A stretch of DNA of 64,000 nucleotides from Xenorhabdus szentirmaii DSM 16338 (GCF_002632585.1 NZ_NIBV01000001.1:476595-540594), one strand, 5' to 3'. Shown: positions 6,118 through 29,526, counted from the first letter of the stretch. Notes: generated by a model not told the origin, from the sequence alone. Made by a program: numbers and translations.

Positions 6118-6209
6118 GCGCCATTCCTGATGATTATACCTTCATCTTTCAATTTGCCCTGTGTTGGCTGTATTTTAAAACCCATGGAATATATATTGGG
6201 TATATCCAG

Positions 6210-7658
6210 TTAAACGCCCTGACAAAGATATTTAAGCTCTAAATAATCCTCAATGCCGTGGGTAGAACCTTCACGCCCCAAACCTGACTGTTTTACTCCA
6301 CCAAATGGAGCAACTTCATTGGAAATAAGTCCGGTATTAATACCTACCATGCCATAATCTAATTTTTCTGAAACACGCCAAATGCGTTGTGGGTTTTCAG
6401 TGTAAAAATAAGCAGCAAGCCCATAAATGGTATTATTGGCAGATTCAATAACACTTTCTTCGTCATCAAAAATCACCAGAGGGGCAATTGGCCCGAATAT
6501 TTCTTCCTCTAATATCAGGCTATTTTTCACAACATTACCGAGTACCGTAGGGATAAAGAAGTTATCACCCAAAACATGACGCTTACCACCATATAATAAA
6601 TCTGCGCCTTTATTTAGTGCATCCTCTAAAAGGAACTGAACCTTATCCGCTGATTTAGCATTAATCAGCGGGCCTATTTGTACTCCTTGTTCAAAACCGT
6701 TACCGACTTGCAGTTTTTGAACTTCTTCGATAAGACGTTGGCTGAATGCCTGATAAATGTCTTTGTGGATATACAAACGATTTGCACAAACGCAAGTCTG
6801 CCCCGCATTGCGGAATTTGGCGGCCATCGCCCCCTCTACCGCTTTTTCAATATCCGCATCTTCAAAAACAATAAAAGGTGCATTTCCCCCTAATTCTAAG
6901 GAGATTTTCTTTATGCTGCCCGAACACTGCCGCATCAATAAACGCCCAACCTCAGTGGAACCCGTAAAACTCAGTTTGCGCACGCGCTCATCATTCGTGA
7001 GTATTTCACCAATAACACGGGAATGGCCAGTGATGATATTGATCACCCCCGCAGGTATTCCCGCCTGAATGGCCAGCTCCACCATTGCCAAGGCTGTAAA
7101 AGGTGTTTCATTCGCCGGTTTTATTATCATGGTACAGCCTGCCGCAAGTGCAGGTGCGGCTTTGCGGGTAATCATCGCTGCCGGAAAATTCCAGGGGGTG
7201 ATGGCCGCACAAACACCAATGCCCTGTTTAATTACCATCAGCCGTTTATCTGCCGCCGGAGAGGGAATGATCTCTCCGTTTGTCCGCTTTCCTTGTTCCG
7301 CAAACCACTCAACAAAAGAAGCGGCATAGGTGATTTCACCCTCCGCTTCCGCCAACGGTTTCCCTTGCTCCAGCGTCATGATTTCTGCCAGCCATTTTTT
7401 ATTTTCACTGATTAGGCGAAACCAGTTCTGTAATAACTGGGCACGTTGATGGCCTGTCAGCGCTTGCCATTCCGGCAATGCATTGTGTGCGGCCTGAATG
7501 GATTTTTTCGTTTCAGTGGCGGCCATATTGGGTATCTGCCCGACAACCTTTCCGGTTGCTGGATCAGATACGATTAATGTCTCTTTATTATCAGCATCAC
7601 ACCATTGCCCATTGATGTGAGCCTGTTGACGAAAAAAAGGATTTTCTGAAATATTCAC
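6210..7658 (-). CDS. NAD(P)-dependent aldehyde dehydrogenase (GabD-like), probably malic semialdehyde dehydrogenase.
   Basis: 482 aa with ALDH family motifs (ELGGNAP, catalytic Cys region VCANRLY). It is inserted between yeaW and yeaX. Confidence 0.75.
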   Translation of the reverse strand: MNISENPFFRQQAHINGQWCDADNKETLIVSDPATGKVVGQIPNMAATETKKSIQAAHNALPEWQALTGHQRAQLLQNWFRLISENKKWLAEIMTLEQGKPLAEAEGEITYAASFVEWFAEQGKRTNGEIIPSPAADKRLMVIKQGIGVCAAITPWNFPAAMITRKAAPALAAGCTMIIKPANETPFTALAMVELAIQAGIPAGVINIITGHSRVIGEILTNDERVRKLSFTGSTEVGRLLMRQCSGSIKKISLELGGNAPFIVFEDADIEKAVEGAMAAKFRNAGQTCVCANRLYIHKDIYQAFSQRLIEEVQKLQVGNGFEQGVQIGPLINAKSADKVQFLLEDALNKGADLLYGGKRHVLGDNFFIPTVLGNVVKNSLILEEEIFGPIAPLVIFDDEESVIESANNTIYGLAAYFYTENPQRIWRVSEKLDYGMVGINTGLISNEVAPFGGVKQSGLGREGSTHGIEDYLELKYLCQGV

Positions 7659-7711
7659 CTAATGACCTCTTTGATTAAGCCGATACTGTCGTTTTCTTAC
7701 CTGATTCCGTC

Positions 7712-8833
7712 TTATTTTTCGTGGTACGTCTGGGCAATAAAATGGTGAAAGTAAGCAATTCCGTGCTCGCTGATCCCACTTCCCGTATTATCTGCCATGA
7801 TGCGCCCCTGACCACGATAACCACGTGATTTCAGCCCCTTCTGAACACTTTCAACCAAGCGCAGATCTTCCGGACGAAAAACATCGCGATACCATTCAAT
7901 CAATGCTTTCTGATCATCAGTCATCTCTTCATTTGTAAAATAAATGTCATAATTTTGCAGTGTGGTTTCAGCATTCACGGGAAATTCATAAATAACAGTC
8001 ATCATGCCCTTGATAGGTGTCACGTTATACATGGTGCAGGGCCATAACCAAAAGCCATGAAATGACGATTCCCCTTCAAATTTGAAAGACTGATCAGAGG
8101 GAATGGCATAACCAAATTGCAGGGACCATCTCTCATGCATGGTATGCCAATAACGATTAACCTGAACGGATTTTGAAAAGCCCGGATGGGCAGGGCCGCA
8201 GTGGTAGCACTCCAGATAATTATCAACAATGCTTTTCCAGTTGGCAGGTGTAGACGTTGTGAAACGTGCCGCCAGTTTTAAGTCATGAACGTCCGGGCAG
8301 GCTTCCAATACTCTGGCACTTAACCCCGGTAACTGCTCTTCAACCGTTCCTGCATTCATGTCCATATTGATGAAAACGAAACCTGCATATTCTTCTACTT
8401 TTACGGGGGTTAATTGCGCCAATTCTTTGTCGAAATTAGCCACATTTTCACAATTACGTGCATGTGCTAAAGAACCATCCAATTTGAATGTCCAGGCATG
8501 GTAGGGGCAAGTGATGACATTTTTCGCTTTTCCTTCCCCTGTTAATAACTGGTGGCCGCGATGAGGACAAACGTTAAAAAACGCACGCAATACTTTGTCC
8601 CGCCCACGAACAATCACAATACTCTCTCCAATAATTTCGCGCGTCACATAATCATTGAGATTGGCAAGCTCACTGCTGTGCGCAACACAAATCCAGCTTC
8701 TGGCAAAAATCGCCTCTTTTTCATAATCAAAGACGTCCTGAGAAGTGTAGAAACGCGCAGGCAAGGTATACGCTTCTGCTGGATTTGCGCAAAAATTTTG
8801 GGGGAGTGTGAAATAAGAATCTTTGATGCTCAT
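7712..8833 (-). CDS. yeaW: Carnitine monooxygenase oxygenase subunit (Rieske non-haem iron oxygenase).
   Basis: Rieske motif CPHRGHQL...CPYHAW and a mononuclear iron domain. It is adjacent to BCCT and the reductase. Confidence 0.85.
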   Translation of the reverse strand: MSIKDSYFTLPQNFCANPAEAYTLPARFYTSQDVFDYEKEAIFARSWICVAHSSELANLNDYVTREIIGESIVIVRGRDKVLRAFFNVCPHRGHQLLTGEGKAKNVITCPYHAWTFKLDGSLAHARNCENVANFDKELAQLTPVKVEEYAGFVFINMDMNAGTVEEQLPGLSARVLEACPDVHDLKLAARFTTSTPANWKSIVDNYLECYHCGPAHPGFSKSVQVNRYWHTMHERWSLQFGYAIPSDQSFKFEGESSFHGFWLWPCTMYNVTPIKGMMTVIYEFPVNAETTLQNYDIYFTNEEMTDDQKALIEWYRDVFRPEDLRLVESVQKGLKSRGYRGQGRIMADNTGSGISEHGIAYFHHFIAQTYHEK

Positions 8834-15785: not shown

Positions 15786-16298
15786 TTACATTCCATCTAT
15801 TTCTTTTAGCATTTCTATTGCAACAGCCATTGGCATAAATAATCTGCCGCTCAATTGAGGAAACTCCTGAAACCCTACATTAATATAAAACTTTTTTGCC
15901 ACATCATTCTTAGCATCAACGATTATCATAGGAGTAGGGATCGATTTTGACGATTCTATCGCTTTTCGAATTGCATCTATAAGCAAAATCTCGCCCAGCC
16001 TTTGCCGCTGAAATTGCTTGCTTACCGCTAATCGGCCAATCAGTGCACAATGTAGTGATGAAAGGTATTTTTTAGATATATTTTCAGGTAATTCATTCAG
16101 CTCTACCGTACATAATGCTAAAGAATAAAACCCTTTAATTTGCGATTCATTTTGGCTACTAACCAGAACAAATGTCCTTGATAAATCCTTTTTATCATGT
16201 TGCCCTGAAATCGCTTTCAGATAGTTATTTAGAGCTGGCTCACCACAATCAAAATGACTCCTAATATGCTGTTTTTTATCAAGACGAACTATCTTCAT
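15786..16298 (-). CDS. GNAT-family acetyltransferase toxin (TacT/AtaT/KacT-like).
   Basis: 170 aa GNAT protein overlapping by 20 nt a DUF1778-type partner upstream. Confidence 0.7.
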   Translation of the reverse strand: MKIVRLDKKQHIRSHFDCGEPALNNYLKAISGQHDKKDLSRTFVLVSSQNESQIKGFYSLALCTVELNELPENISKKYLSSLHCALIGRLAVSKQFQRQRLGEILLIDAIRKAIESSKSIPTPMIIVDAKNDVAKKFYINVGFQEFPQLSGRLFMPMAVAIEMLKEIDGM

Positions 16299-16572
16299 TT
16301 ATTATTGTTTCCTTATGATGGCGAGCAGCTCGAAGGAAGCGTTCATTTGCCTTGATTGGCTCTTCCAATGCATGGACAAATGCCAATGCATCTTCCTGAC
16401 ACAATCGAATACGCATATCTTGTTCAATTAGCCTCTTTGCTTCCGCTACAGCGGCATTTGCAATGAAACTGTTCAAACTTGCATACCCTGATAATGATAA
16501 CGCTCGTTCAAGTAGCTCTTTGATTTCAGGATTCACTCTCGTAGTGATCCTTTCTTGAGCTTCATGTTTCAT
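16279..16572 (-). CDS. DUF1778 (TacA/AtaR-like RHH) antitoxin.
   Basis: 97 aa with ..ERITTRVNPEIKELLERAL..LTERD-like pattern. Its position and overlap with the GNAT gene support the call. Confidence 0.65.
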   Translation of the reverse strand: MKHEAQERITTRVNPEIKELLERALSLSGYASLNSFIANAAVAEAKRLIEQDMRIRLCQEDALAFVHALEEPIKANERFLRAARHHKETIINEDSSS

Positions 16573-16878
16573 ATTATGTTCCTTTGACTTATATATTTGA
16601 TTTATATGAATTTATACCTTTCTTTACTCAGATACCTTTCATCCATTGATGAATTTATCACCAAAATTAACAAGTGTCAATTTATGTGCCAAAATGACAC
16701 ATTCTTGTAAGCTAAATTGTGCAACCTGATCAAACTACCGAGTAAGAAAACCGCCTATCCACATGCAACACAAACAATACCTGAATTAATTTTGATAGGT
16801 TAATCATAATGTTAAACCAATATGAAAAACCTACCCAAAATTTTCAGGAATTTCCTCTTTCAACCATCAGGCTAATGA

Positions 16879-17037
16879 TTAAGGAGTCACATCCGTGTAT
16901 AAGAGTTTTTTGTGATTTAAACCTTCATAATCAGTTTCAAAATGGATAAAACGCTCCTGAACAGGATCAAATGTTGTTCTCTTTGTTTCTGTCTCCATTT
17001 TTTGTTTATACCGTATATTTTTTCCTTGCTTATCCAT
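16879..17037 (-). CDS. Possible 52-aa small protein as the fourth gene of the AT-rich operon.
   Basis: Manual translation gives MDKQGKNIRYKQKMETETKRTTFDPVQERFIHFETDYEGLNHKKLLYTDVTP. It starts 15 nt after the upstream stop and has a weak RBS. Confidence 0.25.
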   Translation of the reverse strand: MDKQGKNIRYKQKMETETKRTTFDPVQERFIHFETDYEGLNHKKLLYTDVTP

Positions 17038-17052
17038 GATGACAGATATTTG

Positions 17053-18003
17053 TCAGTCATATTTGCCATGTTGAACAATTAAATGCTCAACACCAATCTG
17101 TAAGTAATGAAGATCTCTATAGCCTGTTTCTAACAAAATTTCACTTTCTCCATCAAAAGAATACCGACGGAGATCATTCAACCCACGTGACAAATCTTGG
17201 GTTAATAAAAACAGTTCCCCATCCATGCCTTGCACCGCTTCATTAACCCTAAAGGGTAACCATTTTACTTTCAGTACCTTACTCGTTTTATAATTCATTT
17301 TAATTTCTAATGAAGCGCGATTAGAATTCGGGGTTTGCCAAATTAAAACCTCACTGCCTTTTATTGTAAATAAATATTGATCATCATACATACTATCTGC
17401 ATTATGTTTACTCATAACGCTCTTTATATTTAATTTATTCTGCCAGTTTTTCCCACCATCCGGGCTATAATTAACATTATCTTTGTTAACATATATAATA
17501 TCATCTTCCTCTTTTGAGAACATAATCTCCCCAAAAATAAAGGCCGTTATTCTAGAGCGTTCGTTATTGTTCTTTTTCCAAGGCTGTGATGTAATTATGG
17601 GTTGATCAGCCAAGTTAATTTTAACTATGTTTTTATCCATCAATAATACACAACGTATTTCTGAGCATATAGCATTGTTTAACAACCCTGATAACCCCCC
17701 AAGAAAAACAATCTCACCCCGACGGGAATAATAAATATTATATTCATATTTCCTTTTTTCCATAGGTGTATAATCGTATTTTTTCTTATTAATTTCCATG
17801 CCAACAATAACAATTAAACCTTCTTTAACGGGATAAGATTTTATAATATCAACATTGCTTAACGTTGTCTTATTGTTTATATTCTCATTCCACTTCCATG
17901 CAGAGTAATAGTTTTTATCAATAAATAAATACCAACCTAATAAACCAATGGAAAACATGACGGTTATAATAATCAGATGTCTGTTTAAAAATGGATTAAT
18001 CAT
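17053..18003 (-). CDS. Hypothetical protein with an N-terminal signal anchor and a domain of about 280 aa outside the membrane.
   Basis: 316 aa and very AT-rich. Its start overlaps the stop of the upstream gene. Confidence 0.6.
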   Translation of the reverse strand: MINPFLNRHLIIITVMFSIGLLGWYLFIDKNYYSAWKWNENINNKTTLSNVDIIKSYPVKEGLIVIVGMEINKKKYDYTPMEKRKYEYNIYYSRRGEIVFLGGLSGLLNNAICSEIRCVLLMDKNIVKINLADQPIITSQPWKKNNNERSRITAFIFGEIMFSKEEDDIIYVNKDNVNYSPDGGKNWQNKLNIKSVMSKHNADSMYDDQYLFTIKGSEVLIWQTPNSNRASLEIKMNYKTSKVLKVKWLPFRVNEAVQGMDGELFLLTQDLSRGLNDLRRYSFDGESEILLETGYRDLHYLQIGVEHLIVQHGKYD

Positions 18004-18575
18004 TATTTCAACACCACCACATCAGAGTTTTTATTCAATTTATGTCGTTTATTACTTAAGTAATAATAAATTTGATGGCAAATCTTACCATTCCTTGAAA
18101 ACACCTTATAAAGGGTACATGCCATTTCCAAAAAGAAGAAAATACCAAAAAATACAGTGAGTAAAATAAATGAAAATTCAAAAAATGAAGATAAGACATC
18201 TATCCAATCCCAATAATAAAAAACATATCCACTTTCTATAAAATTAGACAATGTCTTTCTTAAAAAAATATCAGTTGTTGTATTTCTTTCAGTATATCTA
18301 TGCCAATCCATGTCTCTGACAGGCATAATTTTTGTGGATAATACCCCTAATTTTTTAAGGATTTCATCATCCATTGATTTGACATAATTATTTGTCTTTT
18401 TTTGTTTAGGATAATAATTCTTAACGCCATCGACATCCAGATAAATTGAATCAGGATTTATATTATACCTTCCTTCCAGTACGCTATTTAATGCTTTTAA
18501 TAATTTTCGTCGGCCAGGATGAAATATAAGTATCGTTTTACGTATTCCTCTAACAATGAAATAGAAAACCAGCAA
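18003..18575 (-). CDS. Hypothetical protein with a C-terminal TM helix.
   Basis: 190 aa, AT-rich and translationally coupled to its neighbours. Confidence 0.55.
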   Translation of the reverse strand: MLVFYFIVRGIRKTILIFHPGRRKLLKALNSVLEGRYNINPDSIYLDVDGVKNYYPKQKKTNNYVKSMDDEILKKLGVLSTKIMPVRDMDWHRYTERNTTTDIFLRKTLSNFIESGYVFYYWDWIDVLSSFFEFSFILLTVFFGIFFFLEMACTLYKVFSRNGKICHQIYYYLSNKRHKLNKNSDVVVLK

Positions 18576-18981
18576 GCATTAAAATAGTAACGAATGCCAT
18601 AAATATTACATCCGAGAAATCATTATTTTTAGAAGAAATATTAAGGTAATGTACCCATACTCCCGAAAATACAACCATCATCCCTATAACAAAAGAGCAA
18701 AGCATAGAGAACTTGAAGACATAATTCTTGTTGGACTCTAAATACCCTTTAGTTGCATGATGTAACCAATGCAGCCAGTACGTTCCATCCTTTAATCGGT
18801 GAGCGCCTATCTTTAATTGATCACCAGATTCAAGTTTCCTCAACACCTGCTGACAGTCAGGAAAATTTTCTTGGCGAAAAAAGAAAACTTCACCAGAGGC
18901 AATTAACCTCACCATATTTTCCAGTATAACGTTTTCATAGTCACACTTTTCCAATGTGACATTAAAAAATTGAGGATTCAT
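18550..18981 (-). CDS. Hypothetical protein with a soluble N-domain and two C-terminal TM helices.
   Basis: 143 aa and the first gene of the AT-rich operon. Confidence 0.55.
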   Translation of the reverse strand: MNPQFFNVTLEKCDYENVILENMVRLIASGEVFFFRQENFPDCQQVLRKLESGDQLKIGAHRLKDGTYWLHWLHHATKGYLESNKNYVFKFSMLCSFVIGMMVVFSGVWVHYLNISSKNNDFSDVIFMAFVTILMLAGFLFHC

Positions 18982-19107
18982 CGAAAAAAATATTCCCCTG
19001 TATTTTGATTATCATAATCATTCCGGTTAACTTTTTTACAGGAGAAAATAGCGACCTTTTTGCTTTTTTTCCAATTCAGTGAAACATTTTTGTTTTCCCT
19101 GACTCAA

Positions 19108-19731
19108 TTATCTCCGGCTACTCAGCGCTAAATTAAACGCAAAAAGTAAAAATACCCCGCCGGTCACTCGATTCATCCACTTAACCACGTTTTCGCGGCG
19201 TAAAATGTGGGAAAGGGGGCGGGTGGCATAAATCAATGATAATGACCAGAATGTGCCAAGCAAGACATGAATAGACACTAAACTAAATGTCCACAAAACG
19301 GGTGAATGCCCTTGAGGAATAAACTGCGGCAAAAATGAAACATAAAATACGCCCATTTTCGGATTGAGAACATTACCCAACATTCCCTTGATAAACCAAT
19401 TTTGATTTTTGGTAGAAGAGGTAATTTCTCCACCAAGATCTTTTTTAGGATGCCACATCATTTGCATGCCCAACCAACATAAATACAGCGCACCACACCA
19501 TTTCAATATGTTGAATGCCAATTCTGATACCGCAATCAAAGTTCCAAGTCCAAAAGCCACCATCGCACCCCAAATAAAGCACCCTGCATTTATGCCAAGC
19601 GCTGCCTGAAAGGCTTTTTTGCCGCTTTCTACGGTTGCGGTCCTAAGAATCAATGCGGTGTCCAAGCCCGGTGTCAATGTGAGCAGGGTTGCGGCAACGG
19701 TAAATGCAAGGAGGGAATCCATCGCGGTCAT
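19108..19731 (-). CDS. LysE/RhtB-family amino-acid exporter.
   Basis: 207 aa, six TM helices, N-terminal LTPGLDTALIL motif. Confidence 0.8.
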   Translation of the reverse strand: MTAMDSLLAFTVAATLLTLTPGLDTALILRTATVESGKKAFQAALGINAGCFIWGAMVAFGLGTLIAVSELAFNILKWCGALYLCWLGMQMMWHPKKDLGGEITSSTKNQNWFIKGMLGNVLNPKMGVFYVSFLPQFIPQGHSPVLWTFSLVSIHVLLGTFWSLSLIYATRPLSHILRRENVVKWMNRVTGGVFLLFAFNLALSSRR

Positions 19732-19750
19732 ACTTTCTCCAAATGTTTTA

Positions 19751-20317
19751 TCAAAGATGCGAAATGATGCTTATATATTTTACGGGTACCGTTTTCGTCA
19801 ACCAAACACCATTATCTGCCTGATGGAATTTAAAACCTTGTTCATTCATCAGCCGGGCGTCAATTTTCAAAATGATAACCTTGCCATGGCGCGCTCCCAC
19901 CTTCGTTGCGGTGGTTTTATCCGCCGATAAATGCACATAGTGCCGCGTTCCCGCCGCCAGCCCCTGTTTGAAAATAGAGTCCAGAAAACGAGTCGCTGTG
20001 CCGTGATACAGAGTGTCAGGCGGCGTTTTTTCCTGATAGCGAATATCTACCCGTTGAGTAGAATGCCCTTGTACTGCCCTGATACGTAGCTGATCCACCG
20101 AAAGAGCAAATCGCTTCTTGTCATTCGTTTCAACAATGTTCTCAATCAGCGCCCAGTTTAATTGCTTGCCGTGTCTGGCTGCACATTTGATTAATACGCC
20201 AATATCCGCCCAGCCTTCACTATCCAGGGTTAAACCTATCGATTCCGGTTGATGGCGCAAGATATAACTTAAAAACTTGCTGGTTTTGGTATCTGCCAGA
20301 TCCCTGTTTTTACCCAT
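19751..20317 (-). CDS. kptA: RNA 2'-phosphotransferase Tpt1/KptA.
   Basis: Collinear with E. coli KptA ([34 protein letters not shown]). Confidence 0.9.
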
Positions 20318-20461
20318 TATTTTTCCTTCCGTTTATTTGAAACGACTTAACTCAGGGTGTTATCCAATCGAGTCTATGCTATTCATTTTTATTGAAGGGG
20401 ACTTTTTATTGATGAATACTAAGCAGGGCCAAAGCCCCGCTGAGTCCATATTCTGACATAA

Positions 20462-21292
20462 TTAGCCGGTCATTACCCAACGTCTTAAATAGCGATCCAG
20501 TAATTCAGTACTGCGTTCGCGCTGATCATTGAGTTCACAGCGCGCCCGTGCTTCATCCAATTCTGATTCAATAAAAGCATGAACCTTCAATTTACGGGAA
20601 CCATATTCTGATTCATTCGCTGCCCGCTTTATCCGCAGCAACTCATCAATATCCATTTTCAATTGTGGGTCATCCACGGTTCCCGCGACCAGCGTTTCAA
20701 AATCTATCGGTGGTGCGCCCTTTCCCATTTCAATCCAGCGAACCGCAAGCAAAGGGCGCAAAACATAAAAATATTTTTTGAGCCGGATTTTTTCACCTTG
20801 CAGGTAGCCCTGAAAGTTCTTTTTCGCCATTGAAAGATAGTGATAGCGCGCTTTTATATCCGAGAAAAAGCACGGTGCCATCGTTTTCAATCCGTTGGTT
20901 GCAGCCGGATCAGCATGATAAATGATGGGTGAATCCAGCCATTCCATTAAAGTCGGGTTGGCCTGTTTCATCAGTTTTAGCGCCTTGCGCAACTCCCAGC
21001 CATTGATATCCAACTCATCGCTGATCGGCAGTTCGATGACATCCCGCCCGTCTTCTACTTTCAGATACCACTCCACGGGATGAACGTAAATAAACCGGAC
21101 ATCGTAATCGCTGTCGGGGGAGGCAACCCCCCACCCACGACTGCCGGATTCACAGGCATACAATATCCGCACACCATATTTTTTTTCTATATCCACCAAT
21201 TCCTGACAGATACGAGCCTTCATCGCCGGACTGACAGCACTGTCTTCTGTATCCAGTTCCATTTCTGTGTCTAGTTCCATTTCTTTTTCCAT
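20462..21292 (-). CDS. Pol-beta-superfamily nucleotidyltransferase (COG3541-like).
   Basis: GSRGWGVASPDSDYDVRFIY nucleotidyltransferase motif. It lies between rtcB and kptA. Confidence 0.65.
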   Translation of the reverse strand: MEKEMELDTEMELDTEDSAVSPAMKARICQELVDIEKKYGVRILYACESGSRGWGVASPDSDYDVRFIYVHPVEWYLKVEDGRDVIELPISDELDINGWELRKALKLMKQANPTLMEWLDSPIIYHADPAATNGLKTMAPCFFSDIKARYHYLSMAKKNFQGYLQGEKIRLKKYFYVLRPLLAVRWIEMGKGAPPIDFETLVAGTVDDPQLKMDIDELLRIKRAANESEYGSRKLKVHAFIESELDEARARCELNDQRERSTELLDRYLRRWVMTG

Positions 21293-21330
21293 CTATTCTT
21301 TTTCCATCTATTCTTTATTTTTTGGGAAAA

Positions 21331-22572
21331 CTAACCTTTTACACACACCACTTGACGCAAGGTATGCACGATTTCCACCAGCGAAGACTGTGCTTGCATC
21401 ACCGCATCGATATCTTTATAAGCCATCGGGATCTCATCGATGACCTCGCTGTCTTTACGGCATTCCACATGTGCTGTTGCGCGTTTTTGGTCGCTGACGG
21501 TAAAACGCTTTTTCGCTTCGGTACGGCTCATCACCCGGCCTGCACCATGACTGCATGAACAAAAACTCTCTTCGTTACCCAACCCACGGACGATATAGCT
21601 TTTCACCCCCATTGATCCCGGAATAATCCCCATCTGGCCTTTTCGGGCAGATACCGCACCTTTGCGTGTCACCAAAACCTCTTCACCATAATGCTGTTCA
21701 CGCTGCACATAGTTATGATGGCAATTCACGGCTTCCTGCTGTGTTGTGAAAGGTTTCGGGATCTCACGTGACAGTGCTTCAAGCACGCGGTGCATCATTA
21801 CCTCACGGTTCTGGCGGGCATAGTCCTGTGCCCAACCCACCGCTTCCATATAGTCGTCAAAATAACGGCTTCCTTCCTCGAAATACGCTAAATCACGATC
21901 CGGCAAGTTAGCCATATGCTGCTGCATGTCTTTCTGTGCCAAGGTGATAAACAAGTTACCAATCGCATTTCCAACGCCACGGGAGCCGCTATGCAACATC
22001 ACCCAGACACGGTCTGCTTCATCAAGGCATAACTCAATAAAATGGTTTCCCGTTCCCAGCGTCCCCAGATGATTGTGGTTATTGGTGTTCAGCAACTTAG
22101 GGTATTTATCGGTAATACGCTTAAACCCCTCCGCCAATGTTCCCCAATGTTGATCCACAATCTCCGGTGCTTTGTTCCAAGACCCTTTATCACGACCGCC
22201 ACGGTTTACGGTACGCCCGTGCGGTACTGCGGCTTCAATGGCATGGCGAATATTCAGCAGGCTGTCCGGCAAATCAGAGGCCACCAGAGAAGTCCGCACA
22301 GCAATCATTCCGCAACCAATATCAACACCAACAGCTGCCGGAATAATGGCGCCGCGTGTTGGGATCACGCTACCGATGGTAGAACCTTTACCGACATGCA
22401 CATCCGGCATTACAGCCAAGTGCTTAAAAACAAACGGCATTTTGGCCGTGTTCTGCAATTGAATGATCGCCTTGGGATCAACGGGAACGCCGTTCGTCCA
22501 CATTTTTACCGGTGCACCATTCTCTTGCTTCAATAAGTGATAAGCGTTGGCTTTCATCTCTGTCGTTGTCAT
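21331..22572 (-). CDS. rtcB: RNA-splicing ligase RtcB.
   Basis: Near-identical blocks to E. coli RtcB (PDVHVGKGSTIGSVIPT, NHNHLGTLGTGNHFIE, CHHNYV, SCSHGAGR). Confidence 0.95.
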   Translation of the reverse strand: MTTTEMKANAYHLLKQENGAPVKMWTNGVPVDPKAIIQLQNTAKMPFVFKHLAVMPDVHVGKGSTIGSVIPTRGAIIPAAVGVDIGCGMIAVRTSLVASDLPDSLLNIRHAIEAAVPHGRTVNRGGRDKGSWNKAPEIVDQHWGTLAEGFKRITDKYPKLLNTNNHNHLGTLGTGNHFIELCLDEADRVWVMLHSGSRGVGNAIGNLFITLAQKDMQQHMANLPDRDLAYFEEGSRYFDDYMEAVGWAQDYARQNREVMMHRVLEALSREIPKPFTTQQEAVNCHHNYVQREQHYGEEVLVTRKGAVSARKGQMGIIPGSMGVKSYIVRGLGNEESFCSCSHGAGRVMSRTEAKKRFTVSDQKRATAHVECRKDSEVIDEIPMAYKDIDAVMQAQSSLVEIVHTLRQVVCVKG

Positions 22573-23711
22573 TTTTGTTCTCCTTTAATGTGTACCAATC
22601 CGTTTAGAACCTGATCTAAACCGCCATATACCGAAATCTGATTAATGCGCTCTGCAATACTTTCCAATGTTTCCAGCTCCTTTAGCCGTAAGGCAATGGG
22701 ATTGTTTTCCATCACCTTCGCGGTATTCAGCAGAGAGCGGGTCGCCGCTGTTTCTTCCCGGCGCCGGATCACATTCGCCTGTGCGGATTTTTCTGCCTCA
22801 ACAACCTGCGATAAAATGGCCTTCATATCGCCGGGCAAAATAATGTCTTTTACCCCCAGAGAGGCCACTTCCAGCCCAAAATTTTGGGTGATTTCCAGAA
22901 GTTGCTGACTGACCAATTCATCAATGACTTGTTTGTTTTCCAACAGCTCATCCAGCGAACGGGTTCCGACCACTTCCCGCAATGCGAATTGCAACTCCCG
23001 ATACAGATAAGCCACAGGCTCACTGAGTTGTCCGTAAGCCATCAATACATCGTGATAACGCCAGTTAGCGGATAAATTGATGCGCAGATTTACTTTGTCA
23101 CGCGTTAAAATTTCTTGCCCGCTCACTTCCAGCGACTGTAAACGGGTATCGATAATTTCTACTGCAACGTCATACCCGACCCGCCAGTAACCTTTTATTC
23201 CCGGCTGCAAGAGTTCCTGCACCGTGCCATCCACTTTTAAAATACCCAGATGCCAAGCTGGGATTTGAGCAATCAAAACACTGTCCCACCCTTTCACGCT
23301 GTGCTTGCGTGACATGGAGGCCGTCAATAGGGAAACCAGCTCTGGTGATACTTCCAGCTCTGAAGTTTTGAACTTCACAATGCGACGCGGATTACCATTT
23401 TTCCAATACAAACGGCGTGTTGCAGGAGGGAGGATCTCCATCAGCAAATCATGTTCATACAACAATCCCAGCTCATCTTCGGCAAGCTGTATATCGTCGC
23501 AATACTGCCCTATCCAAGAGGAATAATACTGACGCAAGTGCTCTGCCCGTTTTGTCTCAATTTCATTTCCATTCAGATCAAAAATCGTCACTTTCAGTTT
23601 GTTAAACCAATCATAGAAGCGGTATTCGCCAGCCACCAAAATCTGTTGGTATTCAGATTTTTTTGCCAATAAACCTATTTGTCCCTGCAATATTTTTATT
23701 TTTTTGATCAT
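22569..23711 (-). CDS. SPFH/band-7 (stomatin/prohibitin-like) domain protein, the first gene of the rtcB operon.
   Basis: 380 aa with an SPFH core. Its stop overlaps the rtcB start by 4 nt. Confidence 0.7.
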   Translation of the reverse strand: MIKKIKILQGQIGLLAKKSEYQQILVAGEYRFYDWFNKLKVTIFDLNGNEIETKRAEHLRQYYSSWIGQYCDDIQLAEDELGLLYEHDLLMEILPPATRRLYWKNGNPRRIVKFKTSELEVSPELVSLLTASMSRKHSVKGWDSVLIAQIPAWHLGILKVDGTVQELLQPGIKGYWRVGYDVAVEIIDTRLQSLEVSGQEILTRDKVNLRINLSANWRYHDVLMAYGQLSEPVAYLYRELQFALREVVGTRSLDELLENKQVIDELVSQQLLEITQNFGLEVASLGVKDIILPGDMKAILSQVVEAEKSAQANVIRRREETAATRSLLNTAKVMENNPIALRLKELETLESIAERINQISVYGGLDQVLNGLVHIKGEQK

Positions 23712-23937
23712 TATTATTTTCCTTCTTATTTTTATCTTCCCTTACATTCTGAAAACTGAGCATCAGGGCGAGGCCAAGGAGGGAATACACAGGTACCCAA
23801 CTGCGGTAGCTCAGTATTCTGCCCTTAGCTCAGCAACATCTGCCGAGCTTTCAAAATGGTGGTTCTCAACAGGCAACCACAGGATTTTATTTCTTTTTTT
23901 TCAATGTGTTTTACTGGGAAAGTAAAAGGTATTTCAT

Positions 23938-23990
23938 GTTTCGAATTTGGGATTCGAACCCAATTAAACCCTGAATGTTATTCGACCATT
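23938..23990 (-). ncRNA. tRNA-like minihelix (T-arm plus acceptor mimic) in the rtcB-operon leader. Candidate Y-RNA/YrlA-like element.
   Basis: The minus strand reads TCGAAT..TTGGG-TTCGAAT-CCCAA-ATTCGA, a canonical T-stem/T-loop flanked by a 6-bp acceptor-like pairing. It lies downstream of the sigma54 promoter. Confidence 0.3.
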
Positions 23991-24093
23991 GTCTATACAC
24001 TGACGGAATACATACGGCGTAATGGCTCATGCCATCACCCATGCACCGGCTGGATTTTGAATCCGTGCTATTTCAGCGTATGACTCCCTAGTT

Positions 24094-24110
24094 ATTGCCA
24101 ATTACGTGCC
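24094..24110 (-). promoter_or_regulatory. Sigma54 (-24/-12) promoter driving the SPFH-rtcB-NTase-kptA operon.
   Basis: Minus strand TGGCACGTAATTGGCAA. GG and GC have the correct spacing, with one mismatch to the TTGCA consensus. Confidence 0.6.
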
Positions 24111-24262
24111 AACTTCGGAAAAAAACAGAAATATTTTTTATCTATTTGAAAAATAATTATTTTTATTTCAGGTTGTTTTTAGTGATGGTTTTTATGGTTA
24201 GATTTCTTTATCTTTCCCTATCGTTGTTTATAAATTCAGATAAATAAAACACAGAGAAGACA

Positions 24263-25840
24263 ATGAAACGCAGAGTGGCCATCGGGATTTTGGGAACTAA
24301 ATTAGACAGGCGCGGCAAGAAAGCCAATCGATGGGCAAAATGGCGGCCAACCGTCGGAATGTGCCAGCAGCCGGAATTACCGGTTGATAGGCTGGAACTG
24401 CTTTACCAATCCAATGATTCTGTTTTGGCGGAGAGGGTTAAAGAGGATATTGAGCAGGTGTCACCACAAACAAAAGTGGTGTTGCATGAAATTCAAATTG
24501 AAAATCCATGGGATTTCGAAGAAGTTTATACGGCATTGCTGGATTTTGCCGTTCGCTACCCTTTCGATATCGAAAATGAAGAATATCTGGTCCATATCAC
24601 CACCGGCACCCACGTTGCCCAAATTTGCTGGTTCTTACTCACGGAAGCCCGTTATTTACCAGCTCAATTGCTTCAAACCGCCCCCAATAATCAGGGTGAT
24701 GAGATCCATCCCGAAGGTGTTTACACAATCATCGATTTAGATCTCAGCCGTTATACGACACTGACCAGCCGCTTTCTGCGGGAACAACAGGAGCAGGTGG
24801 CGTTTCTGAAATCAGGCATCGCAACACGCAATGCTAACTTTAACCATTTGATAGACCAAGTTGAACGCGTCGCCTTGCGCTCTGCTGCCCCCATTTTGCT
24901 GACAGGGCCTACGGGAGCGGGCAAATCTTTCCTCGCACGCCGGATCTACCAGTTGCGGCAATCGCGCCATTTAATCAAAGGGCAGTTTGTCGAGGTGAAT
25001 TGCGCTACCCTGCGGGGTGACAATGCCATGTCTACCCTGTTCGGACACGTCAAAGGGGCATTTACGGGCGCCATTCAGCCACGCGCAGGATTGCTCCGTG
25101 AAGCAGATAACGGCATTCTGTTTCTTGACGAAGTGGCTGAACTCGGATTGGATGAACAAGCGATGTTGCTGAAAGCCATTGAAGAAAAACATTTCCTGCC
25201 TTATGGCTCCGACAAGGCGGTTTACAGTGATTTCCAATTAATTGCCGGTACACATCGTGACTTACAGGATTGGGTCGCTCAAGGGAAATTCCGCGAAGAT
25301 TTATATGCCCGCATCAATATGTGGACATATCAACTGCCCGGTCTGGCACAACGCCGTGAAGATATTGAACCCAACATTGATTATGAACTTGCCCGCTATG
25401 CTCAAATGCAGCAAACACAGGTTCGTTTTGATAAAGAAGCAAGAAAAATTTACCTGCATTTTGCCTGCTCTGAACAGGCGCAATGGCGGGGCAACTTTCG
25501 TGAACTCAGCGCTTCCATCACGCGGATGGCAACATTTGCCGAAAATGGGCGCATCAATCAATCTTTGGCAGAAGAAGAAATCACACGTTTGAAAAAAAGT
25601 TGGCATGGTGGGCGGCACTCCGCTTTATTGCCTGACCACCTGCCCGACATTGATCTGTTCGATCGCCAGCAGCTGGAAACTGTGATTACGATCTGCCGAG
25701 AATCCACCAGCTTATCGGAAGCGGGACGCAAACTTTTCGCCGTTTCCCGCCAACATAAAAAACGGCCCAATGATGCCGATAGACTACGCAAGTATCTTGC
25801 CCGATTCGGTCTGGATTGGGAAAGCCTTCAACATGGTTAG
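24263..25840 (+). CDS. rtcR: Sigma54-dependent regulator RtcR (CARF plus AAA+ plus HTH).
   Basis: Collinear with E. coli RtcR, with a GAFTGA motif. It is divergent from the rtcB operon. Confidence 0.9.
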   Translation: MKRRVAIGILGTKLDRRGKKANRWAKWRPTVGMCQQPELPVDRLELLYQSNDSVLAERVKEDIEQVSPQTKVVLHEIQIENPWDFEEVYTALLDFAVRYPFDIENEEYLVHITTGTHVAQICWFLLTEARYLPAQLLQTAPNNQGDEIHPEGVYTIIDLDLSRYTTLTSRFLREQQEQVAFLKSGIATRNANFNHLIDQVERVALRSAAPILLTGPTGAGKSFLARRIYQLRQSRHLIKGQFVEVNCATLRGDNAMSTLFGHVKGAFTGAIQPRAGLLREADNGILFLDEVAELGLDEQAMLLKAIEEKHFLPYGSDKAVYSDFQLIAGTHRDLQDWVAQGKFREDLYARINMWTYQLPGLAQRREDIEPNIDYELARYAQMQQTQVRFDKEARKIYLHFACSEQAQWRGNFRELSASITRMATFAENGRINQSLAEEEITRLKKSWHGGRHSALLPDHLPDIDLFDRQQLETVITICRESTSLSEAGRKLFAVSRQHKKRPNDADRLRKYLARFGLDWESLQHG

Positions 25841-25866: not shown

Positions 25867-26787
25867 ATGGAACTGAAATTTTTAGGCACCAGCGCCGGCG
25901 TTCCCACTAAAGAGCGTAACGTCACCAGCCTGATCCTCGATTTGCAGGGCACCCGCAATGCATTGTGGATGTTTGATTGCGGGGAAGGAACACAACATCA
26001 GATCCTCCATTCTTCGGTCAAGATCTCCAAACTGGAGAAAATTTTTATCACTCACCTGCACGGGGATCATATCTTTGGTTTGCCCGGTTTGCTGTGCAGC
26101 CGCTCAATGGGCGGCTCTACCGACCCGCTTACCTTATATGGCCCGACCGGCATACGCCAGTTTGTGGAAACTTCACTGCAACTGAGCAGCTCTTTTCTGA
26201 CCTATCCTCTGGACATTACCGAAGTTCAGGCAGGGCCGTTATTTGATGATGGTGAGCTGAAAGTCACGGCTTACGCTTTAAACCATCGCGTGGAATGTTA
26301 TGGCTATCGCATTGAAGAACATGATAAAGCCGGTGCACTGGATACCCAGAAACTGGATCAGGACGCCATCCCCCGTGGCCCGTGGATGCAGGCATTAAAA
26401 CAAGGCGGCACAATCACCCTGGAAGATGGCCGTACCATTTGTGGTAAAGATTATTTAGGTGTGCCGATCCGGGGTAAATCACTGGCCATTTTCGGGGATA
26501 CTGAACCAACGCCGGAAGCCCTGAAAATGGCGGCCAATGTTGATGTGATGGTACATGAAATCACATTGGAAGATGCCTTTGCCGAAAAAGCCAATGAACG
26601 GGGCCATTCCACCACCAAACAGGCCGCAGCACTGGCCCGTGATGCCAAGGCAAAACACTTTATCGCCACCCATATCAGCGGACGTTATGGCGTTGAAGAT
26701 TGCCCGCGGTTATTGGCGGAATGCCGGGAAATATTCCCCAATACCGATCTGGCTAAAGATTTTGCCGTGTTCCCGGTGAGAACGTGA
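25867..26787 (+). CDS. rbn: RNase BN / RNase Z.
   Basis: 306 aa with HLHGDH. It is near-collinear with E. coli ElaC/Rbn. Confidence 0.9.
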
Positions 26788-27159: not shown

Positions 27160-27745
27160 AACCACCGACTAAAGTCGGTGGGTTAGTGATTAACGGACTG
27201 AAAGTCCGGATACGCATCGGCTGAACGATGCGTCAATCGTCCATCTTGAAATTATCATTTGGGTTCGGTTCAAAATGGTGGGCAAGATAAGCCTCAATCA
27301 TTTCTTCTGTTAACTGACCCACCGTGGCACAAAAATAGCCTCTGCCCCAAAAATGCTGACCCCAATAGCGTTTTTTCAGATGAGTAAACTCCTCAAACAA
27401 CTTACTCGCTGTCCTCCTTTTCAGCCTCCTCATGATTTCTGAGGGTGCTAATGTCGGCGGACTATTCACCAATATGTGAACATGATCTTGGCTCACGACA
27501 CCACTTAATATTCTGATTTCAAATGCTTCACACGTCTGACGGACTAACTCTCGCACCCGAATACCGACTTCACCCGTCAGCACCTTGTACCTGTATTTTG
27601 TTACCCACACAAAATGATATTCGATATTAAATACCGTGTGGCTGCCATATCTGTAATCCATGTTGCACCTCCCGTGCAACACAGTATCGCAGCTAAAGCT
27701 GACCGACTAAAGTCGGTGGTTTTAACCTTTAATATGGAAGAATAA
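27160..27745 (-). mobile_element. IS200/IS605-family element (a tnpA-only unit with subterminal hairpins).
   Basis: CCACCGACTAAAGTCGGTGG hairpins at both sides (27175 and 27704) flank tnpA. Confidence 0.6.
27233..27661 (-). CDS. tnpA: IS200/IS605 Y1 transposase TnpA.
   Basis: HVHILV HUH motif with a downstream catalytic Tyr region. It is about 142 aa. Confidence 0.85.
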   Translation of the reverse strand: MDYRYGSHTVFNIEYHFVWVTKYRYKVLTGEVGIRVRELVRQTCEAFEIRILSGVVSQDHVHILVNSPPTLAPSEIMRRLKRRTASKLFEEFTHLKKRYWGQHFWGRGYFCATVGQLTEEMIEAYLAHHFEPNPNDNFKMDD

Positions 27746-28403: not shown

Positions 28404-28511
28404 CATGAAAGAGTGCGCTGTCAAGGCCGTTACAAAACATCAAGTTAACGAAACACTGTCTGCTGGCAGCGTGGGCGTATTGTTTTTCCCATTGCTTAAC
28501 CAAACATTTAA
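28404..28511 (+). CDS. pyrL: pyrBI leader peptide.
   Basis: The 35-codon ORF MKECAVKAVTKHQVNETLSAGSVGVLFFPLLNPNI ends immediately before the attenuator hairpin. Confidence 0.7.
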
Positions 28512-28542
28512 AAAGCCCCTCAATTGAGGGGCTTTTTTTTGC
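28512..28542 (+). terminator. pyrBI transcription attenuator.
   Basis: aaaagCCCCTCaattGAGGGGcttttttttg. Confidence 0.85.
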
Positions 28543-28584
28543 CCGACCCGTCGAAGGCTCGAGTCATAAAAGAGGAATGTACAC

Positions 28585-29526
28585 ATGGCTAATCCGTTAT
28601 ATCGCAAGCATATCATTTCAATTAATGATCTGAACCGCGCAGATCTGGAATTGGTATTGCAGACGGCAGCTGCATTGAAAGCCAATCCACAGACTGAATT
28701 ACTGAAACACAAGGTGATCGCAAGCTGCTTCTTTGAAGCTTCCACGCGTACCCGCCTCTCTTTTGAAACCGCCATTCAGCGACTCGGCGCTTCTGTTGTT
28801 GGTTTTGCTGACAGCAGCAATACGTCATTGGGCAAAAAGGGAGAAACGTTGGCAGATACCATTTCCATCATCAGCCAATATGCCGATGCGATTGTGATGC
28901 GTCACCCACAAGAAGGGGCGGCACGGCTGGCTTCTGAATTTTCCGGTGATATCCCTGTCATCAACGCCGGCGATGGTGCAAACCAGCATCCAACCCAAAC
29001 GTTGTTGGACCTGTTCACCATTCAGGAAACCCAGGGCCGGCTGGAAAACCTGAAAATTGCCATGGTCGGGGATTTGAAATACGGCCGTACCGTTCACTCC
29101 CTGACTCAGGCACTGGCGAAATTCAATGGCAACCATTTCTGCTTTATCGCGCCGGATGCGCTGGCAATGCCAAGCTATATCCTGCATATGCTGGAAGAGA
29201 AACAAGTCAGTTACAGCCTCCACACTAACTTTGAAGACGTCCTACCAGAGCTGGATATTCTGTACATGACCCGTGTTCAGAAAGAGCGCCTTGATCCTTC
29301 AGAATATGCCAATATCAAAGCGCAATTTGTTCTGCGCGCGGCAGACTTGGCAAACGTCAAAGAGAACCTGAAAGTGCTGCATCCTCTGCCACGTATTGAT
29401 GAGATCACAGTGGATGTTGATAAAACGCCTTATGCTTACTATTTCCAACAAGCAGGTAACGGGATTTTCGCCCGTCAGGCATTATTATCATTGGTCTTGA
29501 ATGAAGAAGTGGTTATGGACAGTTAA
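28585..29526 (+). CDS. pyrB: Aspartate carbamoyltransferase catalytic subunit.
   Basis: STRTR, HPTQ and other ATCase motifs. It matches E. coli PyrB. Confidence 0.95.

Follow-up and report, generated by a model that had tools for sequence, protein, structure and literature searches.

The locus described here is, in our judgement, probably the Xenorhabdus copy of a Band-7 (SPFH)-type Rtc RNA-repair operon that works through the steps proposed below. It lies within a 64-kb stretch of X. szentirmaii DNA (the window). Systems that combine a Band-7 protein, a b7a-tRNA, RtcB and RlaP were predicted by Burroughs and Aravind in 2016 (NAR 44:8525, quoted in bioRxiv 10.1101/312249), and the composition SPFH, RtcB and RlaP under RtcR/sigma-54 control has thus already been described; that Xenorhabdus carries a real copy is confirmed. 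Because the operon belongs to a predicted, almost unstudied class of RNA-repair systems, its existence is no surprise. Two leader RNAs that flank the predicted tRNA-like RNA covary strongly and fall outside Rfam, and their covariation is documented here.

Gene content of the locus

A sequence-only reading of this DNA had placed rtcR divergent from an operon of four genes, encoding an SPFH protein, RtcB, a pol-beta nucleotidyltransferase and KptA, and the positions of the open reading frames bear this out (Table 1), as does the 4-nt overlap (22569-22572) between the SPFH stop codon and the rtcB start codon. Family HMMs agree with all five gene identities. RtcB (PF01139, 448 bits) shares 71% identity with its E. 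coli counterpart across 407 amino acids, as befits the ortholog it had been taken for. The putative nucleotidyltransferase is indeed one, matching RlaP (PF10127, 325.7 bits) along the full profile, from position 1 to 249 of 249, with a GS...DxD motif that reads GSRGWG...DSDYD.

Table 1 Features of the Xenorhabdus rtc locus, with positions counted along the window
Feature	Position	Strand	Description
LysE-family exporter gene	19108-19731	-	PF01810, E = 1.6e-30
kptA/Tpt1	19751-20317	-	188 aa, NAD+-dependent RNA 2'-phosphotransferase
GC-rich stem-loop, rlaP-kptA spacer	20422-20442	-	no U-tract after the stem
rlaP	20462-21292	-	276 aa, RNA-ligase-associated pol-beta nucleotidyltransferase
rtcB	21331-22572	-	413 aa, 3'-phosphate RNA ligase
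SPFH/Band-7 gene	22569-23711	-	380 aa
Leader element C	23747-23857	-	predicted ~111-nt rod-like hairpin, variable tip
Leader element B	23938-23987	-	predicted reduced tRNA-like (b7a-tRNA-type) minihelix
Leader element A	23989-24086	-	~98-nt RNA predicted to form a three-way junction from a closing stem, a short hairpin and a long one
Predicted sigma-54 (-24/-12) promoter TGGCACGTAATTGGCA	24096-24111	-	pattern match, 1 mismatch
TTATC/GATAA-type repeats adjoining the rtcR start	24206-24244	.	read from sequence
rtcR	24263-25840	+	525 aa, divergent from the operon
rnz (RNase Z/BN)	25867-26787	+	NF000800, 508.6 bits (cut-off 398)

The absence of rtcA also held across the whole window, in which tblastn returned no match (best E = 5). 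This composition had been called non-canonical. However, the system type was predicted in 2016, and lack of RtcA is the rule among the Enterobacterales SPFH loci sampled (17 of 17). SPFH orthologs occur in at least 577 species genomes of gamma- and beta-proteobacteria, and in 80 loci sampled among these matching genomes we found the architecture SPFH-(RtcB)-(RlaP) with a divergent rtcR.

Note that rnz lies 26 nt 3' of rtcR on the same strand, and that the rtcR-rnz pair is common to loci L001-L007 (Providencia, Erwinia, Brenneria, Proteus and Lonsdalea) and Xenorhabdus. It is a conserved neighbour, and a functional link to the rtc genes would be putative.

RtcR and the sigma-54 promoter

RtcR scored 836.8 bits with NF038308 (cut-off 650) and is 64% identical to its E. 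coli counterpart. Its layout is CARF, sigma-54 AAA+ and HTH, with PF06956 (RtcR) at residues 2-185 and PF00158 at residues 187-354. The predicted promoter is situated ~385 nt 5' of the SPFH ATG, and every one of the 17 Enterobacterales loci has the pattern TGGCAYG-N4-T[G/C]GC at the corresponding site; the promoter is also alignable in four Xenorhabdus loci. The RtcR/sigma-54 control proposed earlier is plausible; use of the promoter, processing of the leader and the extent of the operon are predictions from these patterns. The TTATC/GATAA repeats are candidate upstream activating sites for RtcR; loci from Enterobacterales, Pseudomonas and Thiobacillus have similar repeats at the corresponding site. 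From 18900 to 24300, no sigma-70-like promoter was detected on the strand of the operon.

A predicted structured RNA leader

The ~385 nt between promoter and SPFH gene contain three RNA modules (A, B and C) that are conserved and lie inside the 5' UTR, from promoter to SPFH ribosome-binding site, in every locus that carries them. (The sequence-only reading overlooked these structured RNAs, the tRNA-like element included.) Rfam has no match to A or C in the window.

Element A folds with a minimum free energy of -37 kcal/mol (z = -4.55). Its covariance model, R1, scores the window at 76.3 bits (E = 1.8e-16) and matches 67 of 83 sources, always just 5' of the SPFH gene and on the SPFH strand. Across the alignment 85.2% of cells pair, with a covariation of 0.456 against at most 0.145 in slid registers. 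Pairing reaches ~95% in helices 2 and 3 and is weaker in the closing stem (57.5% in the broad alignment). Element C (-42.8 kcal/mol, z = -3.22) has conserved internal-loop motifs, GGCARAA and TTCCCYnC. Its model, R2, scores 79 bits in the window (E = 9.4e-17) and has 23 matches, comprising all the Enterobacterales together with Snodgrassella and Gilliamella; pairing holds in 92.5% of cells, compensatory changes are seen at 19 of the 22 pairs, and the covariation of 0.681 compares with at most 0.206 in slid registers.

Element B combines a 6-bp acceptor-like stem with a T-arm (TTGGG-TTCGAAT-CCCAA, 23947-23963) and has no D or anticodon arm. The minihelix is its minimum-free-energy fold, with an unexceptional energy (z = -0.03), and neither ARAGORN nor Rfam called it in the window. 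Its acceptor stem covaries (TCGAAT/ATTCGA in the window, GTGAAC/GTTCAC in X. bovienii), and in X. hominickii the T-arm is lost. In 64 of 67 loci, element A is followed by a T-loop of the form GGTTCRAnTCC, and 40 loci have two copies of it ~73 nt apart; at this site in Pseudomonas and the beta-proteobacteria ARAGORN finds one or two tRNA-like genes, and the Rfam tRNA model reaches 50.8 bits in one of the loci compared (L030). The window minihelix, with its perfect T-loop, is clearly homologous by position to these full tRNA-like units, and element B is probably a local version of the b7a-tRNA that had been predicted. The 2018 paper that names the tRNA-like RNA describes it as not yet validated (bioRxiv 10.1101/312249), and we found no experimental validation of a Band-7-linked tRNA-like RNA in the literature examined. 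The coordinates and covariance models given here should ease Northern, CLIP and structural work on these RNAs.

The SPFH protein

The SPFH fold is present in the 380-residue protein (Band_7, E = 8.9e-26), which is laid out as three tandem 5-stranded beta modules (~residues 1-190), an SPFH domain and a long helix, and is 50-57% identical to the orthologs sampled from Pseudomonas, Burkholderia and other beta-proteobacteria. No TM-like segment was found along it (maximum Kyte-Doolittle 19-residue mean 1.09, versus 1.96 for LysE), and by this measure the protein is soluble. The best structural matches to the SPFH domain are stomatin, HflK/C, flotillin and QmcA, and the core fold and coiled-coil helix of membrane SPFH scaffolds are there; only major vault protein (MVP) aligns end to end with beta-repeats, SPFH domain and helix. 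The likeness to MVP is structural and inferential only, and is not in itself evidence for a cage or for RNA packaging. The operon contains no gene for an NfeD or protease partner and no further open reading frame between leader and rtcB. A soluble, MVP-like SPFH protein bears on the roles of SPFH rings away from membranes.

KptA and its linkage to the operon

KptA scored 165.8 bits with PF01885 (PTS_2-RNA) and 257.7 bits with NF002014 (cut-off 239), and its LRH, IRAxQGHS and tRH (t-RH-vHLS) motifs align with those of Runella Tpt1 (7kw8; 170 bits). Judged by this alignment to a solved Tpt1, the enzyme is catalytically intact. We take the catalytic Arg-His-Arg-Arg tetrad to be R16/H17/R64/R119 in the numbering of the Shuman-lab papers.

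The gene follows rlaP in X. szentirmaii (the window included), X. hominickii and X. bovienii, and in none of 80 other sampled loci; as far as these loci indicate, the linkage is a single-lineage feature with one evolutionary origin, in Xenorhabdus. The co-oriented lysE gene, which begins 19 nt 3' of kptA and always accompanies it in Xenorhabdus, is probably a passenger. In X. nematophila the SPFH gene, rtcR and rlaP are gone, rtcB is a fragment and toxin-antitoxin genes have been inserted, with kptA-lysE intact; because kptA survives this decay, its role in the pathway is only putative.

The junctions that RtcB makes between 3'-phosphate or 2',3'-cyclic phosphate ends and 5'-OH ends carry no 2'-phosphate. 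KptA is therefore not a step downstream of RtcB, and the "complete heal-and-seal pathway" seen in this gene set by the sequence-only reading does not stand; a clean-up by KptA after RtcB ligation is ruled out by the same chemistry. No Trl1-type ligase is encoded in the operon, where RtcB is the sole ligase, and the operon therefore does not yield the canonical substrate of Tpt1. A subset of Tpt1 enzymes does remove terminal 2'-PO4. The role of KptA/Tpt1 in bacteria without a Trl1-type ligase has been called obscure (PMC6573784). The RlaP family has been named and biochemically characterised, and its 3'-OH products are not RtcB substrates, an incompatibility that the RlaP authors acknowledge (PMC12776372).

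Proposed mechanism and alternatives

We propose that RNA cleavage products with 2',3'-cyclic phosphate ends would activate RtcR through its CARF domain, as in the family generally, and that transcription would start at the sigma-54 promoter, yielding leader elements A, B and C followed by the SPFH, rtcB and rlaP reading frames and then, in Xenorhabdus only, those of KptA and the LysE exporter. By analogy with their families, RtcB would reseal the cyclic or 3'-phosphate ends to 5'-OH ends and RlaP would put one or two missing nucleotides back on the 3' end. The SPFH protein may oligomerise into a cytosolic ring or cage and, with RNAs derived from the leader, might support the repair enzymes as a scaffold or cofactor, much as has been proposed for Ro and Y RNA in rsr-yrlBA-rtcBA. 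If KptA is involved, it would most plausibly remove 2'-phosphates at RNA ends that are no substrate for RtcB, and would thus make up in part for the absent 2'-phosphate healing activity of RtcA. A stronger version, which we consider improbable, has the SPFH protein form a vault-like ring or cage in the cytosol that binds the RNAs released from its own mRNA leader and concentrates RtcB and RlaP on damaged tRNA or rRNA, with the orphan KptA recruited in Xenorhabdus as the particle's enzyme for healing 2'-phosphate ends in place of RtcA; such a particle, if real, would provide the first physiological pathway for KptA in bacteria.

Two alternatives concern parts of this scheme. It is a serious possibility, to which we give somewhat less than an even chance, that kptA-lysE is an independent transcription unit held in place by Xenorhabdus synteny and that KptA has no part in Rtc repair. 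The pair adjoins the rtc system in Xenorhabdus alone and outlasts it in X. nematophila, Photorhabdus kptA is unlinked to rtc genes and sits in an unrelated context, RtcB makes no 2'-PO4 junction, and kptA is coupled to lysE, whose product has no link with RNA repair, just as tightly (19 nt) as to rlaP. The 144-nt rlaP-kptA spacer of the window also holds a stable hairpin (-19.1 kcal/mol, z = -3.47), one that the terminator scan did not call; however, the spacers of X. hominickii and X. bovienii measure 23-43 nt and have no terminator (in X. hominickii, at 23 nt, the stem-loop is absent), and no sigma-70-like promoter was detected 5' of kptA. KptA is, moreover, regarded as an RNA-end-healing enzyme in other repair systems, and RtcA, the other handler of 2'-PO4 ends, is missing here. 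A kptA gene beside an RtcA-less rtcB-rlaP operon makes Xenorhabdus a natural test of whether KptA heals 2'-phosphate ends in vivo. It is rather unlikely that modules A, B and C act purely in cis (as mRNA stabilisers, as a processing platform, or as a sensor or decoy adjusting translation or RtcR signalling) and are not RNA partners of the SPFH protein in trans. Their confinement to the 5' UTR, the lack of any promoter or terminator of their own in our searches and the end of element C ~35 nt short of the SPFH start codon would suit such a role, yet RNase P and RNase Z naturally process tRNA-like units, which would set fragments free, and the Y RNAs of rsr-yrlBA-rtcBA are likewise embedded in an operon and act in trans. 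The modules also co-occur strictly with the SPFH gene, and A and C are kept even in SPFH-RlaP-only loci without RtcB.

Two further readings recast the operon as a whole. That it is a mobile anti-phage defence module, or a phage counter-defence module as the sequence-only reading allowed, is very unlikely: PADLOC includes RtcR-type CARF regulators and RNA repair does counter ribotoxins in phage-host conflicts, but the RtcR model was the only PADLOC match (none for SPFH, RtcB, RlaP or KptA), a single SPFH relative turned up in 2.9 million viral contigs, the site beside rnz is chromosomal and conserved across several families, and the cassette does not stand out in GC content (0.43-0.51) from the flank beyond rtcR. 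The same reading had the SPFH protein anchor a complete RtcB, KptA and nucleotidyltransferase heal-and-seal pathway at the membrane, which we regard as exceedingly unlikely. Most characterised SPFH proteins are membrane-associated, among them the four best structural matches to the SPFH domain, but no hydrophobic or TM segment occurs anywhere in this one, three soluble beta modules take the place of the stomatin membrane hairpin, the operon has no NfeD partner gene, and the substrate of KptA is not an RtcB product. Anchoring is disfavoured by the first two of these points, and RNA repair by a soluble SPFH system remains the functional frame that we prefer; of the earlier interpretation, the framing as RNA repair was right.

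Comparison with known systems

The E. coli rtcBA-rtcR operon has the same RtcR/sigma-54 control, with the RtcB and RtcR identities given above; it includes RtcA and has no SPFH protein, RlaP, long structured leader or operon-encoded KptA. Salmonella rsr-yrlB-yrlA-rtcBA resembles the Xenorhabdus operon in placing an RNA-binding scaffold candidate and embedded structured noncoding RNAs, one of them tRNA-like, 5' of rtcB under RtcR, with Ro/TROVE in the place of SPFH. The leader RNAs are not Y RNAs: the Rfam YrlA model has no match in the window (on a Pseudomonas tRNA-like unit it gives a partial match of 33 bits).

Eukaryotic vaults (MVP, vault RNA, TEP1 and PARP4) have in MVP a protein with the domain order of the SPFH protein, beta repeats followed by an SPFH-like shoulder and a cap helix, that aligns over approximately the full length of the SPFH protein, although the SPFH protein has three beta modules against nine in MVP and sequence identity is 11-13%. 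Like the pathway of tRNA ligase and Tpt1 in fungal and plant splicing, the Xenorhabdus operon pairs an intact Tpt1/KptA with an RNA ligase; its ligase is RtcB, not one of the Trl1 type, and produces no junction 2'-PO4.

The Band-7/b7a-tRNA systems are alike in the divergent rtcR, the Band-7 gene in first place, RtcB, RlaP and, with element B as its putative counterpart, a tRNA-like RNA adjoining the Band-7 gene. PaFlo8 of Pseudomonas aeruginosa has already been noted inside an rtc locus, in the order rtcR, then PaFlo8-rtcB-rlaP-rtcA, whereas the Xenorhabdus operon has no rtcA. The predicted tRNA-like RNA is reduced to an acceptor/T-arm minihelix in the window, against one or two full cloverleaf-like units in Pseudomonas and the beta-proteobacteria, and Xenorhabdus, unlike the other members sampled, has KptA and LysE appended.

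The cassette belongs to a predicted class of RNA repair operons

Families were assigned with Pfam and NCBIfam profiles, and an ORF list reproduced exactly the gene coordinates that had been read from the sequence. [quoted passage not shown] The RtcB and RtcR proteins are 71% and 64% identical, respectively, to those of E. coli K-12, and the SPFH stop and the rtcB start share 4 nt. The claimed absence of RtcA also held, E. coli RtcA finding no match anywhere in the 64-kb window. Note that RlaP likewise found no match among PDB sequences, in a copy that does not include the PfRlaP crystal structure.

Features of the cassette, its leader and its surroundings (window positions)
Feature	Position	Strand	Evidence or description
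AT-rich island	~16000-19000		GC 0.28-0.35 vs ~0.47 in cassette; directly downstream of lysE
Island ORF	17053-18003	-	no Pfam match
Island ORF	18003-18575	-	no Pfam match
Island ORF	18550-18981	-	no Pfam match
kptA	19751-20317	-	ORF list; PTS_2-RNA 165.8 bits; equivalog NF002014 above cut-off
rlaP (276 aa)	20462-21292	-	PF10127 325.7 bits
rtcB	21331-22572	-	RtcB Pfam family 448 bits
SPFH gene (380 aa)	22569-23711	-	Band_7 E = 8.9e-26
Element C	23747-23857		rod-like hairpin, z = -3.22
Element B	23938-23987		tRNA-like minihelix, z = -0.03
Element A	23989-24086		three-way junction, z = -4.55
Sigma-54 promoter	24096-24111	-	TGGCACGTAATTGGCA; ~385 nt upstream of SPFH ATG
Candidate RtcR sites	24206-24244		TTATC...GATA(A) repeats beside rtcR start codon
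rtcR	24263-25840	+ (divergent from the other cassette genes)	equivalog NF038308 836.8 bits
rnz (RNase Z/BN)	25867-26787	+	NF000800 508.6 bits; 26 nt downstream of rtcR, same strand
IS200-like Y1 transposase	27233-27682	-	PF01797 E = 8.1e-43
Attenuator-like matches	28428-28585		weak, sub-threshold Rfam matches
Aspartate/ornithine carbamoyltransferase gene	28585-29526		just downstream of the attenuator-like matches

The composition had been taken to be novel and non-canonical, a view that the neighbourhood check overturned, as the same class has already been described and a missing RtcA is the rule in its Enterobacterales copies. The class prediction is attributed, in text that cites it, to Burroughs & Aravind 2016. 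The Pseudomonas operon has been drawn as rtcR / rtcB-rlaP-rtcA, with rtcR divergent, and the RlaP enzyme of Pseudomonas extends damaged RNAs at the 3'-OH by one or two NMPs (2025 preprint, PMC12776372); in P. aeruginosa, the rtc locus contains the gene of the SPFH protein PaFlo8 (2026 paper). The cassette is a real member of this known, computationally predicted class.

Relatives of the SPFH protein are encoded at no fewer than 577 loci in Gamma- and Betaproteobacteria in a scan that took one genome per species; 80 of these loci were fetched as a sample for neighbourhood counts. Downstream of the SPFH gene lay RtcB only (21 of 80), RtcB-RlaP-RtcA (17), RtcB-RlaP (16; the raw tally adds X. bovienii L085 here, whereas the counts given here cover the 80 species loci alone), RlaP only (7), RtcB-RtcA (7), RtcB-RtcA-RlaP (4) or nothing recognised (8; the raw blank class, n = 9, takes in L021 and L033, where the contig runs out directly past the SPFH gene). 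Because none of the 17 Enterobacterales loci carries RtcA, its absence is normal for this branch, in which the last gene of the operon is rlaP or rtcB.

Several fetched loci depart from this layout. RtcB is wholly missing, leaving leader-SPFH-RlaP only (at about 6000-8000), from L003, L005, L008, L009, L010, L016 and L017, which come from Brenneria, Lonsdalea, Klebsiella, Superficieibacter, Citrobacter and Mangrovibacter and still have leader elements A and C. What seems to be the constant core consists of the SPFH, RNA and RlaP parts. Among the Pseudomonas and beta-proteobacterial loci (L018-L080), the SPFH-rtcB gap measures 450-830 nt, and in some of them the rtcB-rlaP interval holds 0.6-2.6 kb of extra sequence.

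The operon leader contains three predicted RNA modules

The predicted sigma-54 promoter is conserved in orthologous loci. Between it and the SPFH gene, the 374-nt leader folds at -109.8 kcal/mol (z = -3.78 vs shuffled controls) and is made up of three modules, elements A, B and C. Enterobacterales, Pseudomonas and Thiobacillus loci have repeats resembling the candidate RtcR sites in the equivalent position. Neither the leader (E <= 10) nor a 12-kb region gave a relevant match when scanned against Rfam.

For element A, a covariance model (R1) built from 20 sequences was searched against 83 sources (1.06 Mb) and matched in 67, in each case immediately 5' of the SPFH gene and on its strand; the window copy scored 76.3 bits. 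In the alignment of these 67 sequences 85.2% of cells are paired, compensatory change is seen at 20 of 23 pairs, and covariation reaches 0.456, slid registers giving no more than 0.145. Pairing is ~95% in the two core helices. The closing stem (P1b), modelled from the Enterobacterales alignment, holds there but has only 57.5% of cells paired over the 67 matches; because P1b is weak outside the Enterobacterales, the broad claim for element A is limited to helices 2-4. Element C, for which the model is R2, was matched in all Enterobacterales loci and in Snodgrassella and Gilliamella (79 bits for the window copy), with 92.5% of cells paired, compensatory change in 19 of 22 pairs, and covariation of 0.681 vs at most 0.206 in slid registers. 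Note that the alignments behind these pairing counts had been made to fit the models, a bias in favour of the structures; independent MAFFT/RNAalifold runs recovered the same helices. Neither element matches any Rfam 15 family, and these two strongly covarying predicted RNA elements are new here.

Element B comprises a 6-bp acceptor-like stem around a 16-nt linker and a perfect T-arm (TTGGG-TTCGAAT-CCCAA), and its fold energy is unexceptional. Its acceptor stem covaries (TCGAAT/ATTCGA in the window vs GTGAAC/GTTCAC in X. bovienii). The window copy was called neither by ARAGORN, run on the leader, nor by Rfam. In this position ARAGORN detected tRNA-like genes, single or paired in tandem and many with aberrant anticodon loops, in loci of Pseudomonas and Betaproteobacteria, and the Rfam tRNA model scores 50.8 bits in one such leader (L030). 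A T-loop consensus lies downstream of element A in 64 of the 67 leaders, as two copies ~73 nt apart in 40 and as one in 24; the single-copy set takes in every Enterobacterales leader that still has a T-loop, the T-arm of X. hominickii having been lost. Because T-loop or tRNA-like units follow element A in orthologous leaders, we interpret element B of the window as a reduced b7a-tRNA (the predicted Band-7-associated tRNA-like RNA); this putative reduced minihelix is also new here. We entertained the idea that elements A and B together form one YrlA-like Y RNA, which was rejected: the Rfam YrlA and tRNA models find no match in Enterobacterales leaders, and the operon has no Ro/TROVE gene.

KptA is a Xenorhabdus-specific addition

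The KptA protein, which aligns with Runella Tpt1 (7kw8) at 170 bits and conserves the catalytic LRH, IRAxQGHS and RH positions, is predicted to be intact. KptA was found in none of the 80 sampled SPFH loci. The gene order rnz-rtcR / SPFH-rtcB-rlaP-kptA-lysE, with rtcR divergent, occurs in the window species, X. szentirmaii and X. hominickii, and X. bovienii FO818637 (L088) has it without the SPFH gene, keeping rtcB-rlaP-kptA-lysE. (In the latter genome a further KptA fragment, of 113 aa, follows a Phd/ParE pair.) Another X. bovienii strain has no kptA within the ~1.1 kb of contig left after rlaP. In X. nematophila (L087) the rtc locus has decayed to a 149-aa RtcB fragment and an rnz fragment, with toxin-antitoxin (ParDE) and HTH insertions, and kptA-lysE is intact despite this decay; in Photorhabdus, kptA lies in an unrelated context. 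Together, the X. nematophila, Photorhabdus and Xenorhabdus contexts argue that the linkage of KptA is a single lineage-specific event. The appending of KptA(-LysE) to an RtcA-less operon is specific to Xenorhabdus and is new here.

In some Xenorhabdus species kptA is likely to be co-transcribed with the operon; the rlaP-kptA spacer of X. hominickii is 23 nt. Co-transcription in the window is uncertain because the spacer there is 144 nt long and contains a stable hairpin (-19.1 kcal/mol, z = -3.47, no U-tract). A promoter scan detected no sigma-70-like promoter in this spacer, and no sigma-70 promoter or canonical terminator splitting the operon was found on the operon strand, the scan being weak negative evidence.

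The sequence-only reading had RtcB ligate the RNA and KptA then remove the 2'-phosphate. RtcB ligation leaves no 2'-phosphate at the junction, and on this reaction chemistry the proposed order does not hold up and a role for KptA after RtcB was rejected. More defensible than post-ligation clean-up is that KptA would remove terminal 2'-PO4; in canonical operons such ends are reportedly handled by RtcA, as Das and Shuman are said to have found in 2013. A subset of Tpt1 enzymes removes terminal 2'-PO4 (PMC6573784). That KptA is functionally integrated in the repair operon is a tentative proposal, to which we give slightly less than an even chance.

The surroundings of the cassette and its occurrence in viruses

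The rtcR-rnz pair is common to Providencia, Proteus, Erwinia, Brenneria, Lonsdalea and Xenorhabdus, and the adjacency could be plain synteny or could be related to processing of the tRNA-like leader. The Y1 transposase gene lies between rnz and a CMD-family gene and is not at the equivalent position in X. szentirmaii or X. hominickii. The ORFs of the AT-rich island overlap or abut, and one of 143 aa is common to the window and X. szentirmaii. The attenuator-like matches are to amino-acid leader peptide/attenuator families, and the region is probably a pyrB-type attenuator.

PADLOC recognised RtcR alone, with no match for SPFH, RtcB, RlaP or KptA. The suggestion that the cassette is a phage-borne counter-defence module was dropped as unsupported, because 2.9 million viral contigs yielded a single SPFH relative. 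(This lone match, at 59% identity, is on L090, IMGVR_UViG_2667528155_000005, a candidate phage or possible prophage-boundary artefact.)

The SPFH protein resembles the major vault protein in its predicted structure

The nearest relatives of the SPFH protein are from Xenorhabdus (93% identity to that of X. szentirmaii). The sequence-only reading had placed it as a membrane anchor for the pathway, an idea at odds with the absence of any hydrophobic segment: the highest 19-residue hydropathy is 1.09, as compared to 1.96 for LysE. The match to PDB stomatin sequences is confined to residues 185-375. The AF2 model (pLDDT 73.7; 80-90 over the N-terminal 190 residues) is laid out as three tandem five-stranded beta modules followed by the SPFH domain and a long helix. 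Sequence similarity is detectable between modules 1 and 2, and orthologs of ~510-535 aa (P0001-P0004, P0010, P0011 and P0018; loci L012, L035, L038, L051 and L070) have an additional N-terminal module, seen as a tandem duplication in the alignment. In its modelled structure this soluble SPFH protein resembles the major vault protein from end to end, a predicted likeness that is new here.
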